This document shows positions 781 to 27,256 of a stretch of DNA of 64,000 nucleotides, one piece after another. The notes beneath the pieces are model-generated. The model made no database searches, was not told the DNA's origin, and saw nothing but the letters and a program-made list of their open reading frames with translations. Origin of the DNA: a virus; IMG/VR virus record IMGVR_UViG_3300013947_000002, positions 32,001 through 96,000 of that record; one strand, 5' to 3'. How positions within the stretch are numbered: the first letter of the stretch is position 1; every line of letters begins with the position of its first letter. Made by a program: the position numbers and the translations under genes.

Positions 781-1604
781 TATGCTTCCTCCTTGCTAAC
801 GTCTGGATATTCGCGAGTACAACAAATTGCATTGCGCAAGCTGCGCATCATCATTGCCTTTTCTTTCTCATAACCAACCTTATCGAGAAATTCTTGTAAT
901 TCCTCACATTCAGCCGGTCTAGTTGATTCTATAATGGCAACTCTCTTCTCAAATGCCCTTTCAGCGTCCGACTTTTGATTACTCTTAAAGTCATCAAGTT
1001 TAAGCAAAGACATAAGTGTCTTAATCTGCGCCTGAGTGTCTTTAGTTACGCCATTTTTATACTGTTCCAATTCCAACTTGCACAAATCACGATAGCGCAT
1101 CTCCATAGCGGTGCCCATCTCAAATACGCCAGACGTATAGCTATCAAACATATCGTCTAGCCATTGACAGTCCTCGTCCTCATAATCGCCACCCCACTGT
1201 TTGCGCCATCTTGCTTTAAGCGCCACCTCATCAGTTTCGCCCTTAGCAACATCGCCCAAATCCTTGAAATTAGACAGCTCCATATCACTATCCCATACAC
1301 CCGTTAATTTATCGGGCGATGTAGACAAGTAGGTATGATACAACATAAATAGACTAGGTTTTTTGCCCTTAGCCGCCTTATCTAGTGTCTCTAAGCATGA
1401 ATTATATTCTGCCCGCCGCATAGGAATGCCAGTCATCATACAGGTTGACCATAACGCCGCGCCTTGGTCTTTGGTCGCATCGAGCGCCTGTTTATATAGC
1501 TCAGTCACGCATGATTTACACGGCTTAATATATTCGCCCGTCTTGATTGGGCTTTTGTAAAATTGGCTATCTTGCTTTTCTTTGCCACAATACGGGCAAA
1601 ACAT
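780..1604 (-). CDS. hypothetical protein with N-terminal zinc ribbon; possible small terminase by position
   Basis: Track ORF 780..1637. Start moved to ATG 1604 (MFCPYCGKEK), preceded by aaaggaa. Lies directly upstream of terL and overlaps it. Function is inferred from position only. Confidence 0.35.
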   Translation of the reverse strand: MFCPYCGKEKQDSQFYKSPIKTGEYIKPCKSCVTELYKQALDATKDQGAALWSTCMMTGIPMRRAEYNSCLETLDKAAKGKKPSLFMLYHTYLSTSPDKLTGVWDSDMELSNFKDLGDVAKGETDEVALKARWRKQWGGDYEDEDCQWLDDMFDSYTSGVFEMGTAMEMRYRDLCKLELEQYKNGVTKDTQAQIKTLMSLLKLDDFKSNQKSDAERAFEKRVAIIESTRPAECEELQEFLDKVGYEKEKAMMMRSLRNAICCTREYPDVSKEEA

Positions 1605-1665: not shown

Positions 1666-2441
1666 TCGTTTATTTCATTTATTCAGTTGTCAAGGTTCAT
1701 ACTGTGATACCCTATCGCTAGGGGCATACGGCGTTTCGCCTTTAGTTGAACAACAGTTCCCATTGAGTTGGGCTTATTGTAGATATGAGGCCGTAGCCTC
1801 CGTCACCTCCTTTCGTCAATTATGCTTCGGATAAACCAGTGGATAATTCAAGAGAAAGTGACCTCCCTTCGGATATTCATAGCCGCCAATGAGTAGTAGC
1901 GACAGGCAGTTTCAGTATGTGCCTAGATACAAGCATTTCGTCAAAGCTCTTACTTGTCAAGCGCCATCAAGCATCTAGCGCTACTCACTGTTATGTTTTA
2001 ATCACGGCTAAGACTCGCTTGGTGTTACCGCCAATTTGGTCTTATTTAATCCCTCATCCCATGCACACGGGAACCGCAGTGCGCCTCATCTTATTTCACC
2101 CACGCATGGCGCTATGTTGGGAAATATGGTGCAATGGGTCTTAGATGTCTGCTCATCTCGCCTTTGCCTACTTATAGCAGAATCACCTGATATTTCTTTG
2201 CCGCATATCAGAAGCGTTTTTGAATATACGGTTTTCATCGTTGCCTTATGGTATACCGCAAACCTTCGATAAGCGTCCACATATCACTCATAGGCAACCG
2301 AGCCATATGCTTCATACGTTCGTATAACACACCTGTTGCTATACGCCTATCATCAAGGATAGGATTTTCGATACTATATTGACGTAGCCCGCCACAGCCA
2401 ACGTCATGCTCGTATTAGGCTCCACTGAATTGTGGATTCAC
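1666..2441 (-). ncRNA. candidate large structured non-coding RNA (~0.8 kb)
   Basis: Bounded by a near-consensus promoter and a terminator. No credible ORF in six frames. Visibly more G+C than its flanks. Many helices, e.g. gaggc-UACG-gcctc (1787-1800), TCCAC/GTGGA, and nested ATAGGC..GCAAC / GTTGC-CTAT. Confidence 0.5.
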
Positions 2442-3714: not shown

Positions 3715-4246
3715 TCAATTTCCGTTCCTTTTCCTTCTGTTTCCGTTCATATTCCTCTTTTTTCTTATTGATGACATTGATAAAATCATCATAGTTCTGT
3801 TGCTTTGCCTTTTCCATGCGCTCTTGTGCTCTTTGCTCAAGCGTTTTTCTTGCTGTTCGTTCTGCCTCGGCCTGAGTCAGCAACTTTAGGTCATTTGGAG
3901 TCAACTTGCGCTCACGGACGCGCTTACGGTATTTCTTTGTAACACCGCGCCCATTGACATTGTTAAGAAAATCTTCGTTGACTTTGTATAATATTTTAAA
4001 CCAAGCCGGATTGATTTGCTCAATAAGCTCCCCTTGTTCATTTTTAGCCATCACCCTACGTTCAGGTAATTCCTCCAATGAGAATGTTCCTACTGCTGGC
4101 ATTTGACACCTGCCATCAAAATGAAGAATGTGTATAATAGTATCAACAAATCCCATCCAGTATTTCTTGGCAGTCTGGGGCGATACATTGAGCAATCCAC
4201 CTGCATAAGTATAAAATTCTTGATTCAGCTTGTTATGTTCGGCCAT
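3683..4246 (-). CDS. HU/IHF-like DNA-binding protein with long basic/acidic coiled-coil tail
   Basis: Start at ATG 4246 (SD aaggaag). Core MPAVGTFSLEELPERRVMAKNEQGELIEQINPAWFKILYKV follows the HU beta-arm pattern. Confidence 0.55.
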   Translation of the reverse strand: MAEHNKLNQEFYTYAGGLLNVSPQTAKKYWMGFVDTIIHILHFDGRCQMPAVGTFSLEELPERRVMAKNEQGELIEQINPAWFKILYKVNEDFLNNVNGRGVTKKYRKRVRERKLTPNDLKLLTQAEAERTARKTLEQRAQERMEKAKQQNYDDFINVINKKKEEYERKQKEKERKLNESNEDTTSD

Positions 4247-24375: not shown

Positions 24376-24531
24376 ATGCTTAATACTTATTTCAAAATTG
24401 GCGATTATATTTGCCGCGTTGACCGCTATGACCGAGAAACTGGTCTGTGGGGATATCGTTGTGACGATGTACCTGTGTTCAATGGCTGGGCTTGTGAAAA
24501 ATTTATTGAGATGAATAAAATTTGTAGTTGA
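24376..24531 (+). CDS. small hypothetical protein (51 aa)
   Basis: Own translation MLNTYFKIGDYICRVDRYDRETGLWGYRCDDVPVFNGWACEKFIEMNKICS, with SD ggag. Confidence 0.4.
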   Translation: MLNTYFKIGDYICRVDRYDRETGLWGYRCDDVPVFNGWACEKFIEMNKICS

Positions 24532-24556
24532 CAAACAGCAAATCGTGTGGTATAAT
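24528..24556 (+). promoter_or_regulatory. sigma70-type promoter driving the leader + tRNA transcript
   Basis: TTGACA 24528-33, 17 nt spacer, TGgTATAAT (24551-56). Confidence 0.65.
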
Positions 24557-24653
24557 TAAGAAGCAATGAGGGAATTGGGAAGCCTGATTTGCGGCATTGT
24601 GAACCTCCTGAAAATATAGTCCTGAGCATGACGGTAAAACTGCTCGACAATAT

Positions 24654-24731
24654 GGTAGGGACGCCAATGTGGTATCGGCACCGCCCTTATAAGACGGAGA
24701 TAGTTTGGTTCGAATCCAACCCCTATCACCA
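24654..24731 (+). tRNA. tRNA-like gene, anticodon UAU (Ile, AUA codon), CCA encoded
   Basis: Hand fold. Acceptor GGTAGGG/CCCTATC (one G.U). 3 bp D stem with a GG loop. Anticodon stem CCGCC/GACGG (one C.A mismatch), loop CTTATAA. T arm TTGG-TTCGAAT-CCAA. Discriminator A + CCA. Imperfections lower confidence. Confidence 0.55.
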
Positions 24732-25377: not shown

Positions 25378-25626
25378 ATGGAACAATCTCCGCTAAAAGC
25401 TATACGCGCCCACTGCATCGAATGTAGTTGTGGCTCAACCAGCGAAGTCAAAAATTGCGTCATCCGTGATTGTGAGCTGTGGCCGTTTCGCATGGGCAAC
25501 AATCCATTCCGTACCCGCTCAATGACCGATGAACAGAAGCAAGCTGCGGCTGAACGGCTCAAATCCGCTCGTCTCGCTAAAAAATCTTCATTAAATAATG
25601 TAGAAAATTCTGAACAAGAAGATTAG
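25378..25626 (+). CDS. small Cys4 zinc-finger protein
   Basis: ATG 25378 within track ORF 25306..25626. AHCIECSCGSTSEVKNCVIRDCELWPFRMG. Confidence 0.5.
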   Translation: MEQSPLKAIRAHCIECSCGSTSEVKNCVIRDCELWPFRMGNNPFRTRSMTDEQKQAAAERLKSARLAKKSSLNNVENSEQED

Positions 25627-25792
25627 TAAGGTAAGTTGTAGTGTAAATAATAAAGGAAATTTTATTGATTATTAGTGTATGAATCTTAACGATTGGATTT
25701 GTTTACTTGCTGGAATCGGCTATTCATTGTTTATGTTTGTGTGTGGTGCAGCATGGGCAAGCGACGTGTTGAAAAAATAATTAAAATACCTC

Positions 25793-25821
25793 TTGATAAA
25801 TAAAATCAAATGTGGTATAAT
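25793..25821 (+). promoter_or_regulatory. sigma70-type promoter driving a ~1 kb ORF-free transcript
   Basis: TTGATA 25793-98, 17 nt spacer, TGgTATAAT (25816-21). Confidence 0.65.
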
Positions 25822-25827
25822 TGAGAA

Positions 25828-26830
25828 TGTAAAGATGATGGTGCTACGAAGCCCACAGAGGACACTATCCATGGAGTGCCGAGCTGGGGAATACAGGAGC
25901 AGTAGTAAATGGAGTGAGATGAACAGCCATCATTATATGCCATATGAGGTCTTGAATGCGAATGAGCCAATGGCTGAAATTGCTCATCCAGATTTGGAGT
26001 AGTATTCAAGATATAACCTTAGCATTGCTCGTGCGAGAGGCAAGCCAAGCTAACTGCATATCCTACGTGGAATGTCTGTCTTGGATGGAAAAGAGCGAAT
26101 TAGGGAACGTGCGTGAGATAAATGAGAGAAGCATAAAAGCGGGTCACAGTCGTGTGAAAGACCGTAATGCCAAGTAGGGCGCACCAGTCAATCTGTTCGG
26201 CATAATAAAGGGATTGGGGTTGACGATTATAGAATGGCACATCGGAAAGACGATGATAATATCCGACCGGATTTGAAGATAACCGTCAAATCTATATCAC
26301 GCCTGCACTGGGGTCTGCGCAGAGTTTGAGAAGCGGCAGATACAGACTAGAGAATTGGGGTCGCGCCCAATCGTGCCACGTTAGCATCCATGCAAAAACG
26401 TAACGTCGAAGGTGATATAAGGATGTTATGTAAACAGCATTCACGAGCCGATGCTAGAAGTAGCTATGAGGTAGGAAGTCGGCTTGAGATTGAATATGGA
26501 AGTGTAAGCTAACTGGATAAACCTCGCCAATTTGGTGAGATTGCAAGTTCGATTCTTGTCACTTCTATTCCCCCACATCCATCACGCTTCTGTTTAGCAT
26601 TGCAAGCGTACCACGATGGATGTATAGAAAAGTCTAAAATCCTAGCTTTGTAAGGCTGAACACAAGAATTGGTCACTTGTGAACGGTCTAGTTTATAAGT
26701 TATAATGCTAGTTGCCGAATAGTTGAAAGCTGACCACCTGACGCTATGAGGCAGCGCTCGCCACACTCCCGATTTTAAGATGGTTGCGCAACTGTAAATT
26801 CAATTTAGCCTGAATTTGTAAGGAGTGTGG
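25828..26830 (+). ncRNA. candidate large structured non-coding RNA (~1 kb) with an embedded tRNA-like module
   Basis: No ORF with an SD. Visibly more G+C than its flanks. Helices include TTGGG-gtcgcg-CCCAA (26355-70), ACGTTA/TAACGT (26378-83/26401-06), AGCCGA/TCGGCT (26446-51/26479-84) and CCACACTCC/GGAGTGTGG (26771-79/26822-30). The 3' end is uncertain, and this could be a long 5' UTR of the HU gene. Confidence 0.45.
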
Positions 26831-26917
26831 CAATTCTATCAGGTCAATATGCGCATGAACATAGCGACTTGTTTTAATAAAATTTTATTAGAAATCGAAA
26901 GGAATTTATCAGGAACA

Positions 26918-27193
26918 ATGACAAAGAAGGAACTAATCAAGTATGTTGCTGGCTCGACCGAGCATACCATTAAGGACACAGAAGAAATTGTTGATGAATT
27001 TATCGACTATGTCAAGAATGCGCTGATTGAGCATGAGGATGTAACCATCCACGGCTTCGGCACATTCAAGACCAAGCTACGCGATGCTCGTACAGCTAGA
27101 AACCCCCAGACCGGTGAAACCATTGAAGTCCCTGCCAAGTATGCACTGGCATTTAAGCCGACAAGCACATTCAAGGCGGCTATCAATGAGTGA
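26918..27193 (+). CDS. hup: HU-type DNA-binding protein
   Basis: MTKKELIKYVA...VTIHGFGTFKTKLRDARTARNPQTGETIEVPAKYALAFKPTSTFKAAI is the canonical HU signature. Confidence 0.9.
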   Translation: MTKKELIKYVAGSTEHTIKDTEEIVDEFIDYVKNALIEHEDVTIHGFGTFKTKLRDARTARNPQTGETIEVPAKYALAFKPTSTFKAAINE

Positions 27194-27207: not shown

Positions 27208-27244
27208 AAAAATCCCTATGGTCGAAAGATTGTAGGGATTTTTC
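27208..27244 (+). terminator. intrinsic terminator
   Basis: aaaaatcccta ... tagggattttt. Confidence 0.75.
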
Positions 27245-27256
27245 TAAAAATAACCC

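Follow-up and report, generated by a model that had tools for sequence, protein, structure and literature searches.

A promoter-led non-coding region upstream of an HU gene

The stretch of DNA analysed here (the window) comprises 64,000 nucleotides (nt) of a viral genome, positions 32,001 to 96,000 of the IMG/VR virus record IMGVR_UViG_3300013947_000002, and encodes a DnaE, a beta-CASP nuclease, an HU protein and a tyrosine recombinase. Upstream of the HU gene lies a region of about 1 kb, for which a first-pass annotation, made from the letters alone, had proposed a promoter followed by a large, helix-dense non-coding RNA, possibly of the GOLLD or ROOL class or, alternatively, a very long 5' untranslated region (UTR) of the HU gene. 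We describe this region, hereafter called the island, as what is rather probably a phage tRNA island giving rise to a polycistronic non-coding RNA of shuffled, independently folding cassettes and not to one giant RNA. All features of the island are on the plus strand and all positions are those of the window, unless a locus in another contig (L numbers) is named.

The stretch from 25627 to 26917 contains no credible open reading frame (ORF), with 12-38 stops per frame. TAA, TAG and TGA are each present in all six frames (25780-26920) and frequent in every one of them, so that a reassignment of stop codons cannot rescue an ORF and a recoded genetic code was rejected. The same gap of ~1.25 kb was left empty by gene callers in 10 related contigs. 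Between the islands of the window and of its relative L011, substitutions counted by position modulo 3 amounted to 50/54/60, that is, without 3-base periodicity, compared to a strongly periodic 64/12/22 in the coding control of HU plus integrase. The lengths of insertions and deletions (indels) in the island are not those of codons and include 1, 2, 4, 5, 7, 14 and 25. With neither an open frame nor codon-periodic substitution, the island has the properties of neither a protein-coding gene nor a pseudogene, and the region 25783-26917 is non-coding. The absence of ORFs noted in the first-pass annotation was thereby confirmed, and codon-like substitution patterns or a conserved ORF in homologues, named there as signs against an RNA, were not seen. 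The region also proved to be enriched in G+C, as had been suspected, albeit modestly (0.448, compared to 0.383 in the 5 kb upstream, 0.420 downstream and 0.409 in the window).

The island is preceded by a sigma-70-type extended -10 promoter, TTGATA-17-TGgTATAAT (25793-25821), which matches 11 of the 12 hexamer positions and carries the additional TG. It belongs to a promoter family, CTTGACAAAT-N11-TGnTATAAT, with 19 matches in the window vs 0.55 expected; 18 of these are on the plus strand, the sites span 9259 to 54134, and copies recur in relatives, for example in L029. Promoter and start are kept in 21-22 of 26 distant relatives. On these grounds the promoter proposed before was retained, and transcription would start near 25828. 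In L036, the same promoter is found ~11 nt 5' of the module M4 described below. Near-identical promoters may serve as recombination points for the exchange of cassettes. No terminator-like site was found between 25821 and 26918, and read-through from the island promoter into HU is therefore likely.

Islands of related phages hold different subsets of collinear modules

The architecture of the island was compared over 66 loci that hold both flanking blocks. Between these same blocks, 20 module combinations were found, with lengths from 210 to 2293 nt, and module order was collinear in all 66 loci. Three relatives (L022, L023 and L024) have no island at all (210 nt) and retain HU and its upstream block, and islands are found without M3 (12 loci), M4 (6) or M7a (8). 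BLAST occupancy in the 26 distant relatives differed from block to block: 25887-25940 was occupied in 17, 25947-26090 in 2-3, 26100-26499 in 17-22, 26500-26626 in 6, 26627-26760 in 19, 26760-26826 in 10 and the block 5' of HU in all 26. The island of L001 differs from that of the window by 72 substitutions plus indels, compared to 3 in 1.2 kb of HU plus integrase; such divergence, far faster than that of the flanks, fits cassette exchange by recombination. Relatives contain extra cassettes as well, among them a RAGATH-33 RNA in L015 and further ORF-free inserts.

To look for helices that join modules, the concatenated alignment of M3, M4, M5 and M7a (32 distinct rows) was scanned for stretches of 4 or more antiparallel pairs of which at least 2 covary; it gave intra-module helices only, and no covarying helix between modules was found. 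The RAGATH-33 (RF03102) of L015 (2728-2840, plus strand, 139.9 bits) is located between the promoter and M3, which is the slot of segment X in the window, and thus presents the island as a collecting place for orphan structured motifs.

M4, a covarying RNA module of eight helices

The best supported module is M4 (26257-26428), an RNA of ~170 nt for which covariation in 48 distinct sequences indicates eight helices, including a closing stem around a multi-stem junction. In the RNAalifold prediction, the closing stem is accompanied by another long-range stem, by a hairpin that carries the loop AGAUAACCG and by four other hairpins, among them one that carries the loop AGAGUUUGAGA. Both loops are invariant across variants that are only ~75% identical and also in the more divergent copies of L086 and L115. 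When 18 sequences were aligned with MAFFT, compensatory changes were seen in 11 of 44 pairs, a number reached by none of 500 shuffles (0/500), and slid controls gave 1-3. After alignment of the 48 distinct sequences to the covariance model R1, 31 of 44 pairs were compensatory and 98.1% of the cells were paired, compared to 8.7 +/- 2.0 in shuffles and 4-13 in slid controls; since this alignment was fitted to R1, these counts lean toward structure.

A gapped pattern made of the two loops recovered every known copy of M4 and then further variants. The divergent M4 of L086 (54 bits with R1) adopted the same architecture when folded alone, with different stem sequences, and in the M4 of L115 (91 bits) the stems P2, P3, P5 and P7 are compensated and P6 is enlarged. 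These copies place M4 in other tRNA islands as well, where M3, M5 and M7 are missing. L086 has, in succession, a promoter, M4, a hairpin and a tRNA with a UUG (Gln) anticodon loop, and in L115 M4 follows immediately on the CCA end of a tRNA-Leu; genes for HU, integrase and Zn-ribbon protein were not found by tblastn in the fetched DNA of L086 (3.1 kb) and L115 (9.2 kb). The position of M4 next to a promoter in L036 and next to a CCA end in L115 suggests that its ends are set by transcription initiation or by tRNA processing.

Beyond these loci, a search of 185,579 reference genomes of bacteria and archaea gave no copy of M4, and thus neither a host nor a prophage. A single match to the looser M4 pattern, in an archaeal metagenome-assembled genome, was judged to be due to chance; it lies inside an ORF of at least 171 amino acids (aa) whose translation, by eye, is GrpE-like. 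In IMG/VR, the looser pattern gave 27 new loci, of which only L115 had the flanking stems, the others being chance matches. Scans of IMG/VR with exact 17- and 18-mers of M4, M5 and M3 returned the same clade only; the extra k-mer loci L041, L047, L049, L059, L060 and L064-L066 share nothing else with the island and were dismissed as chance matches.

Two observations were made in passing on M4-bearing islands. L029 (3116-3252, plus strand, 69.6 bits with R1) and L032 (2312-2449, plus strand, 67.9 bits) contain, besides the main copy and ~230-275 nt upstream of it, another one that is shorter and has diverged, indicating that M4 was duplicated within some islands. In L086, an ORF of 166 aa (MKEIWKDIPGFEKRYMVSNMGRVYS...; 1075-1575, minus strand) lies between two tRNA genes of the island, and its translation, judged by eye, resembles homing endonucleases of the HNH/NUMOD4 type.

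A tRNA-shaped element in a slot for tRNA genes

At 26498-26567, the Rfam tRNA model is matched over its full length (1-71) with 30.9 bits at a gathering score of 29. The tRNA-like module that had been pointed out here is thus real, though ARAGORN did not call it as a tRNA. Acceptor, D and T arms are intact and the anticodon arm has given way to a stem of 7 bp and a loop of 3 nt, CUCGCCA-AUU-UGGUGAG, so that a single nucleotide is aligned to the five loop positions of the Rfam model. The 7-nt anticodon loop on a 5-bp stem that is required for decoding is not present in the element. The elbow is represented by the acceptor stem, a T arm with the loop UUCGAUU and the GG of the D loop. It is the elbow of a tRNA that is recognised by RNase P, RNase Z and the CCA-adding enzyme. 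Judged by its sequence, the element is a tRNA-shaped RNA with an intact elbow that should be unable to decode.

The sequence of this element is identical in 13 loci, and in a second allele family acceptor, D and T arms are kept with compensatory changes in the acceptor stem. The identity in 13 loci together with the homologous second family argues for a conserved tRNA-shaped module and not for a randomly decayed gene. In most relatives the same slot is occupied by real tRNA genes, as detected by ARAGORN and Rfam; these are mostly tRNA-Leu (CAA), and tRNA-Leu (UAA), tRNA-Met, tRNA-Ile, tRNA-Thr and tRNA-Val were found too.

The members of the second allele family (L012, L016 at 4015-4088, L020, L026, L077, L080, L097 and L106) are near-identical except for TAT, TGT, TAC or TAA in a 7-nt loop, and their anticodon stem is poorly paired. 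Phage tRNAs have been proposed to evade host nucleases that target the anticodon (PMC10264068), a proposal which the anticodon-variable alleles possibly recall; we take this analogy as a lead only.

A further tRNA gene was seen upstream of the island. A tRNA-Ile(UAU)-like gene with encoded CCA (24654-24728, plus strand) scored 36.9 bits when the stretch was searched alone and was missed by ARAGORN and by the gathering-mode Rfam scan of the whole window. It is preceded by a perfect promoter (12/12; 24528-24556, plus strand) and a leader of 85 nt (24569-24653), which shares 95% identity with the one that precedes another tRNA-Ile allele in L011, the same pattern of conserved leader and swapped tRNA as in the island. 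In L011 (2786-2877) and at the equivalent position in most relatives, ARAGORN calls a tRNA-Ile(UAU) of 90-95 nt (Rfam 45-47 bits) with an apparent long extra arm, which is unusual for tRNA-Ile.

Modules flanking M4 and the tRNA slot

The 5'-terminal structured domain, M1 (25834-25934), is closed by the stem GAUGAUGGUG/CAGCCAUCAUU; its 3' single strand is conserved and its apical hairpin can be exchanged, with at least five alternatives of different length among 24 distinct sequences; 7 of the 24 predicted pairs are compensatory. It is followed by slot X (25946-26095), a variable cassette that forms a long imperfect hairpin in this phage and is shared by only 2-3 of the 26 distant relatives. 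M3 (26103-26226; 18 to 36 distinct sequences) is strongly conserved in sequence, with long invariant runs and an internal hairpin that is swapped among three lengths. Between M4 and the tRNA slot lies M5 (26444-26486), a hairpin CGAGCCGA/UCGGCUUG with compensatory stem changes that encloses GCUA-GAAR-UAGC and the conserved UAUGAGGUAGGAAG. The conserved block of M5 (26427-26497) stops at the 5' end of the tRNA slot, and in 14 relatives the 3' end of M5 is 0-4 nt away from the 5' end of a tRNA-Leu gene.

Downstream of the tRNA-like element, minimum free energy (MFE) folds gave hairpin H (ACAUCCAUC...GAUGGAUGU; 26575-26623), which has no U-tract, was not flagged as a terminator and occurs only with the allele of the tRNA-like element found in the window and in the L011 group. 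M7a (26627-26757) consists of a short stem, a hairpin (26653-26689) with the conserved loop UUGGUCA and a two-step stem (26711-26755); its 39 distinct sequences show compensatory changes in 6 of 26 pairs and four stem versions of the hairpin with one loop. M7b (26761-26830), present in 10 of the 26 distant relatives, is a long hairpin closed by CCACACUCC/GGAGUGUGG.

The covariation check on homologues that the first-pass annotation had suggested was thus positive in part, with compensatory pairs inside M4, M1, M5 and M7a and little or none in M3 and M7b. The four pairs of complementary segments listed there all exist; they form local hairpins of at most 70 nt and not long-range helices, and the segment CCACACTCC is located at 26761-26769 and not at 26771-79. 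Three of these helices are supported by compensatory changes, and the fourth, the 26761/26822 hairpin that closes M7b, is conserved with little variation.

Comparison with known RNA families and systems

The region was searched with the 4227 models of Rfam 15 using cmscan. At E<=10 and with lax filters, 25600-27000 matched tRNA only, and no GOLLD, ROOL, intron, ribozyme or riboswitch was found. At the gathering score, neither GOLLD nor ROOL was detected in the whole window or in 13 relatives, nor at E<=0.1 in 3 more loci; in 16 relatives, tRNA and the one RAGATH-33, which is absent from the window, were the only families found. M1, M3, M4, M5 and M7 have no match among the Rfam 15 families. 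The region is therefore not GOLLD or ROOL. The assignment to a large RNA of this class, for which just such a covariance-model scan had been recommended, was given up, given the lack of an Rfam match even at E<=10, the 20 architectures in 66 loci and the restriction of all covarying helices to single modules; what remains of it is a promoter-driven, non-coding, structured RNA of the kind that adjoins phage tRNAs.

GOLLD and ROOL are nevertheless the nearest described kind. Large non-coding RNAs of phages are common in tRNA islands and are possibly co-transcribed with tRNAs (PMC5737381, PMC12286853), and in GOLLD in particular the 3' region is conserved, the 5' region less so, and the linker sometimes contains tRNAs (PMC12286853). 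The location of the island is the same, since it is found on phage contigs and since tRNA genes lie inside the homologous island of relatives. Like GOLLD, it is phage-encoded, non-coding and close to tRNA genes, has multi-helix domains and a more variable 5' part, and carries a tRNA sequence between its 5' and 3' parts (PMC12286853). Unlike GOLLD, it shows no sign of one multi-domain fold of ~800 nt: the modules measure 60-175 nt, assort independently into the 20 architectures and recur alone, and covariation is found within modules only and not between domains. With ROOL (~580 nt; Firmicutes/rumen phages and prophages) it shares the niche in tRNA islands, a probable Firmicutes host and a possible co-transcription with tRNAs (PMC5737381), but not the Rfam model with its six multistem junctions as well as three pseudoknots, to which no match was obtained.

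The closest match to the mechanism proposed below would be, by analogy, the tRNA cluster of phage T4. There, a phage promoter reportedly gives rise to a precursor of tRNAs and stable RNAs (species 1 and 2, RNA C and D), which is said to be cut apart by host tRNA-processing enzymes. The island has the corresponding polycistronic layout, i.e. a single promoter, non-coding sequence, tRNA or tRNA-like and structured units and no internal terminator. In contrast to the T4 cluster, the island of the window has no more than a tRNA-like element that does not decode, its modules exceed those RNAs in size and are shuffled between relatives, and the two are not expected to be related in sequence. The tRNA-like t-elements of plant mitochondria act as processing signals for RNase P and RNase Z (PMC1920247). 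The element described here resembles them in having intact acceptor and T arms, no decoding capacity and a position inside a longer predicted transcript; it differs in that related phages have real tRNAs as alleles of the same slot and in that its cleavage is predicted.

Proposed organisation of the island and alternative explanations

We propose that one long non-coding transcript would start from the strong promoter (25793-25821) at ~25828 and comprise, in this order, M1, X, M3, M4, M5, the tRNA-shaped element, H, M7a and M7b; it would probably run on through HU to the stem plus T-run at ~27208-27246. Its units would be cassettes, of which related phages hold different subsets in the same order, with real tRNA genes in the slot of the tRNA-like element. 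Host RNase P would cut at the 5' end of this element (~26498) and an enzyme of tRNA 3'-end processing after ~26567. Such tRNA punctuation would free the upstream structured RNAs from the downstream part, and the freed modules, M4 above all, could then act as separate accessory RNAs during infection.

This proposal describes a different organisation of the niche occupied by GOLLD and ROOL, namely a hypervariable, promoter-led array of smaller cassettes that are exchanged among gut phages. New elements are the M4 motif, which has no Rfam 15 family, and the conserved tRNA-shaped element that should be unable to decode. If the modules are stable RNAs, they would be small and tractable handles on the reason why structured RNAs are put next to tRNAs in phages. 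Processing, stabilisation and the countering of host defences that target tRNAs are candidates, and it is the last of these on which the anticodon alleles of the tRNA-like element would bear.

Several points weigh against this organisation. Start, ends, processing and stability of the transcript are all inferred, as is its cleavage by RNase P and RNase Z at a tRNA-like element with G1-U72 as its first pair and no encoded CCA. The MFE z-scores of four sub-regions, calculated against dinucleotide shuffles, were not significant (-0.92, -1.68, +0.06 and -0.12). Thermodynamic stability was therefore rejected as evidence of structure and the description of the region as helix-dense did not hold up as a departure from chance; folds of the whole region (-310.9 kcal/mol for the plus and -277.8 kcal/mol for the minus strand) had no shuffle control and were not used. 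M3 has no compensatory pairs and, with a z-score of +0.06, its structure is not demonstrated. M7b is strongly conserved in sequence, with little variation and few compensatory changes, and for M4 the fit of the larger alignment to R1 has to be kept in mind. Most of the diversity sampled belongs to a single clade of phages. Furthermore, M3, M4, M5 and M7a occur together and in constant order in at least 45 of 63 islands, a pattern that a single multidomain RNA would also yield. Such a new giant RNA would have a GOLLD-like layout with a 5' domain (M1, M3, M4, M5), a linker made of a tRNA or the tRNA-like element and a 3' domain (M7a, M7b); it would be a single molecule with swappable domains that perhaps oligomerises or self-assembles into a particle. 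It would agree with a single promoter, with the lack of an internal terminator, with a module order that does not vary and with conserved structured sequence amounting to ~1 kb beside tRNAs; GOLLD, with its conserved 3' region, variable 5' region and linker tRNAs, sets a precedent (PMC12286853). We nevertheless consider it unlikely, because neither GOLLD nor ROOL was matched at E<=10, M3, M4 or M7a can each be missing from an island, M4 turns up by itself in tRNA islands that are unrelated and in two copies in certain islands, no covarying helix joins the modules and three relatives have no island. A more modest version of this unlikely reading would make M4 by itself a hitherto undescribed kind of functional RNA confined to the tRNA islands of phages, such as a ribozyme, or a decoy or partner that binds factors of tRNA processing or of defence.

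Two explanations remain. A long regulatory 5' UTR of HU, comprising the whole region, would agree with the shared strand, with the lack of a terminator between promoter and HU, with the weakness of the only promoter-like site just before HU (9/12) and with the terminator-like stem plus T-run after it; yet L022, L023 and L024 keep HU and its upstream block without the island, island content varies 10-fold next to an HU that is identical or nearly so, and M4 is found at loci without HU in the fetched DNA. The tRNA genes inside the islands of relatives imply, in addition, that the transcript is cleaved upstream of HU. This alternative, already raised in the first-pass annotation, is thus improbable. 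If the island consisted of the remains of a decaying tRNA array, i.e. of pseudo-tRNAs and spacers with no present function, its loss from three relatives, the non-decoding element in a slot where relatives hold tRNA genes and folding energies no better than those of shuffles would all be expected. Decay would hardly preserve 98% of the M4 pairs by compensatory changes in 48 distinct sequences, with similar signs in M1, M5 and M7a, nor keep the M4 loops invariant across ~75% identical variants and in L086 and L115; apart from the tRNA-like element itself, whose allele is identical in 13 loci, no module is tRNA-like at E<=10, and we regard decay as very improbable.

Flanking genes and source of the phage

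The HU-family DNA-binding protein is encoded at 26918-27193 (plus strand; Pfam Bac_DNA_binding, E=1e-31), and a stem plus T-run is found in the sequence downstream of it (~27208-27246). Directly 5' of the gene lies a conserved block (26837-26917) with a weak promoter-like site, TGAACA-16-TAAAAT (26856-26883, 9/12 match), and a ribosome-binding site, which is kept in all 26 distant relatives and even in relatives without an island. Transcripts from the island promoter probably read through into the HU gene as well. The block (26841-26917) can be read as ...QVNMRMNIATC... in the window and in L023 (4037-4190); in L023, an AGGAGG-ATG ORF runs into it, in a frame relative to HU that differs from that of the window. 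It is probably a conserved regulatory sequence, a small overlapping ORF being the alternative.

Just 5' of the island promoter, an ORF for a hydrophobic peptide of 33 aa (MNLNDWICLLAGIGYSLFMFVCGAAWASDVLKK; 25679-25780, plus strand) is shared by ~5 of the 26 distant relatives, and a different small hydrophobic ORF takes its place in L025 and L036. For the upstream ORF in a form of 106 aa, an exact-protein look-up had nothing on record; gene callers use a form of 82 aa.

No DNA relative of the window was found among 50,697 GenBank phage records in near and distant mode, and its DnaE is 42-48% identical at the protein level to those of the nearest isolates, Clostridioides pCD1602_4 and Bacillus siphoviruses. 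An identical copy of the HU protein is encoded on ~24 metagenomic contigs of up to 96 kb. In IMG/VR, 26 relatives have an integrase 86-97% identical to that of the window, and 43 further contigs came from a metagenome scan; wherever their record names a source, it is a human-gut assembly. The source is thus an uncultivated clade of human-gut phages of ~90 kb, with Firmicutes as the probable host, and the known distribution of the island RNAs is narrow. Elsewhere in the window, a drum RNA (RF02958) was detected at 2224-2320 (minus strand) with 43.3 bits at a gathering score of 43; drum is an orphan class of structured RNA that was described together with ROOL (PMC5737381).

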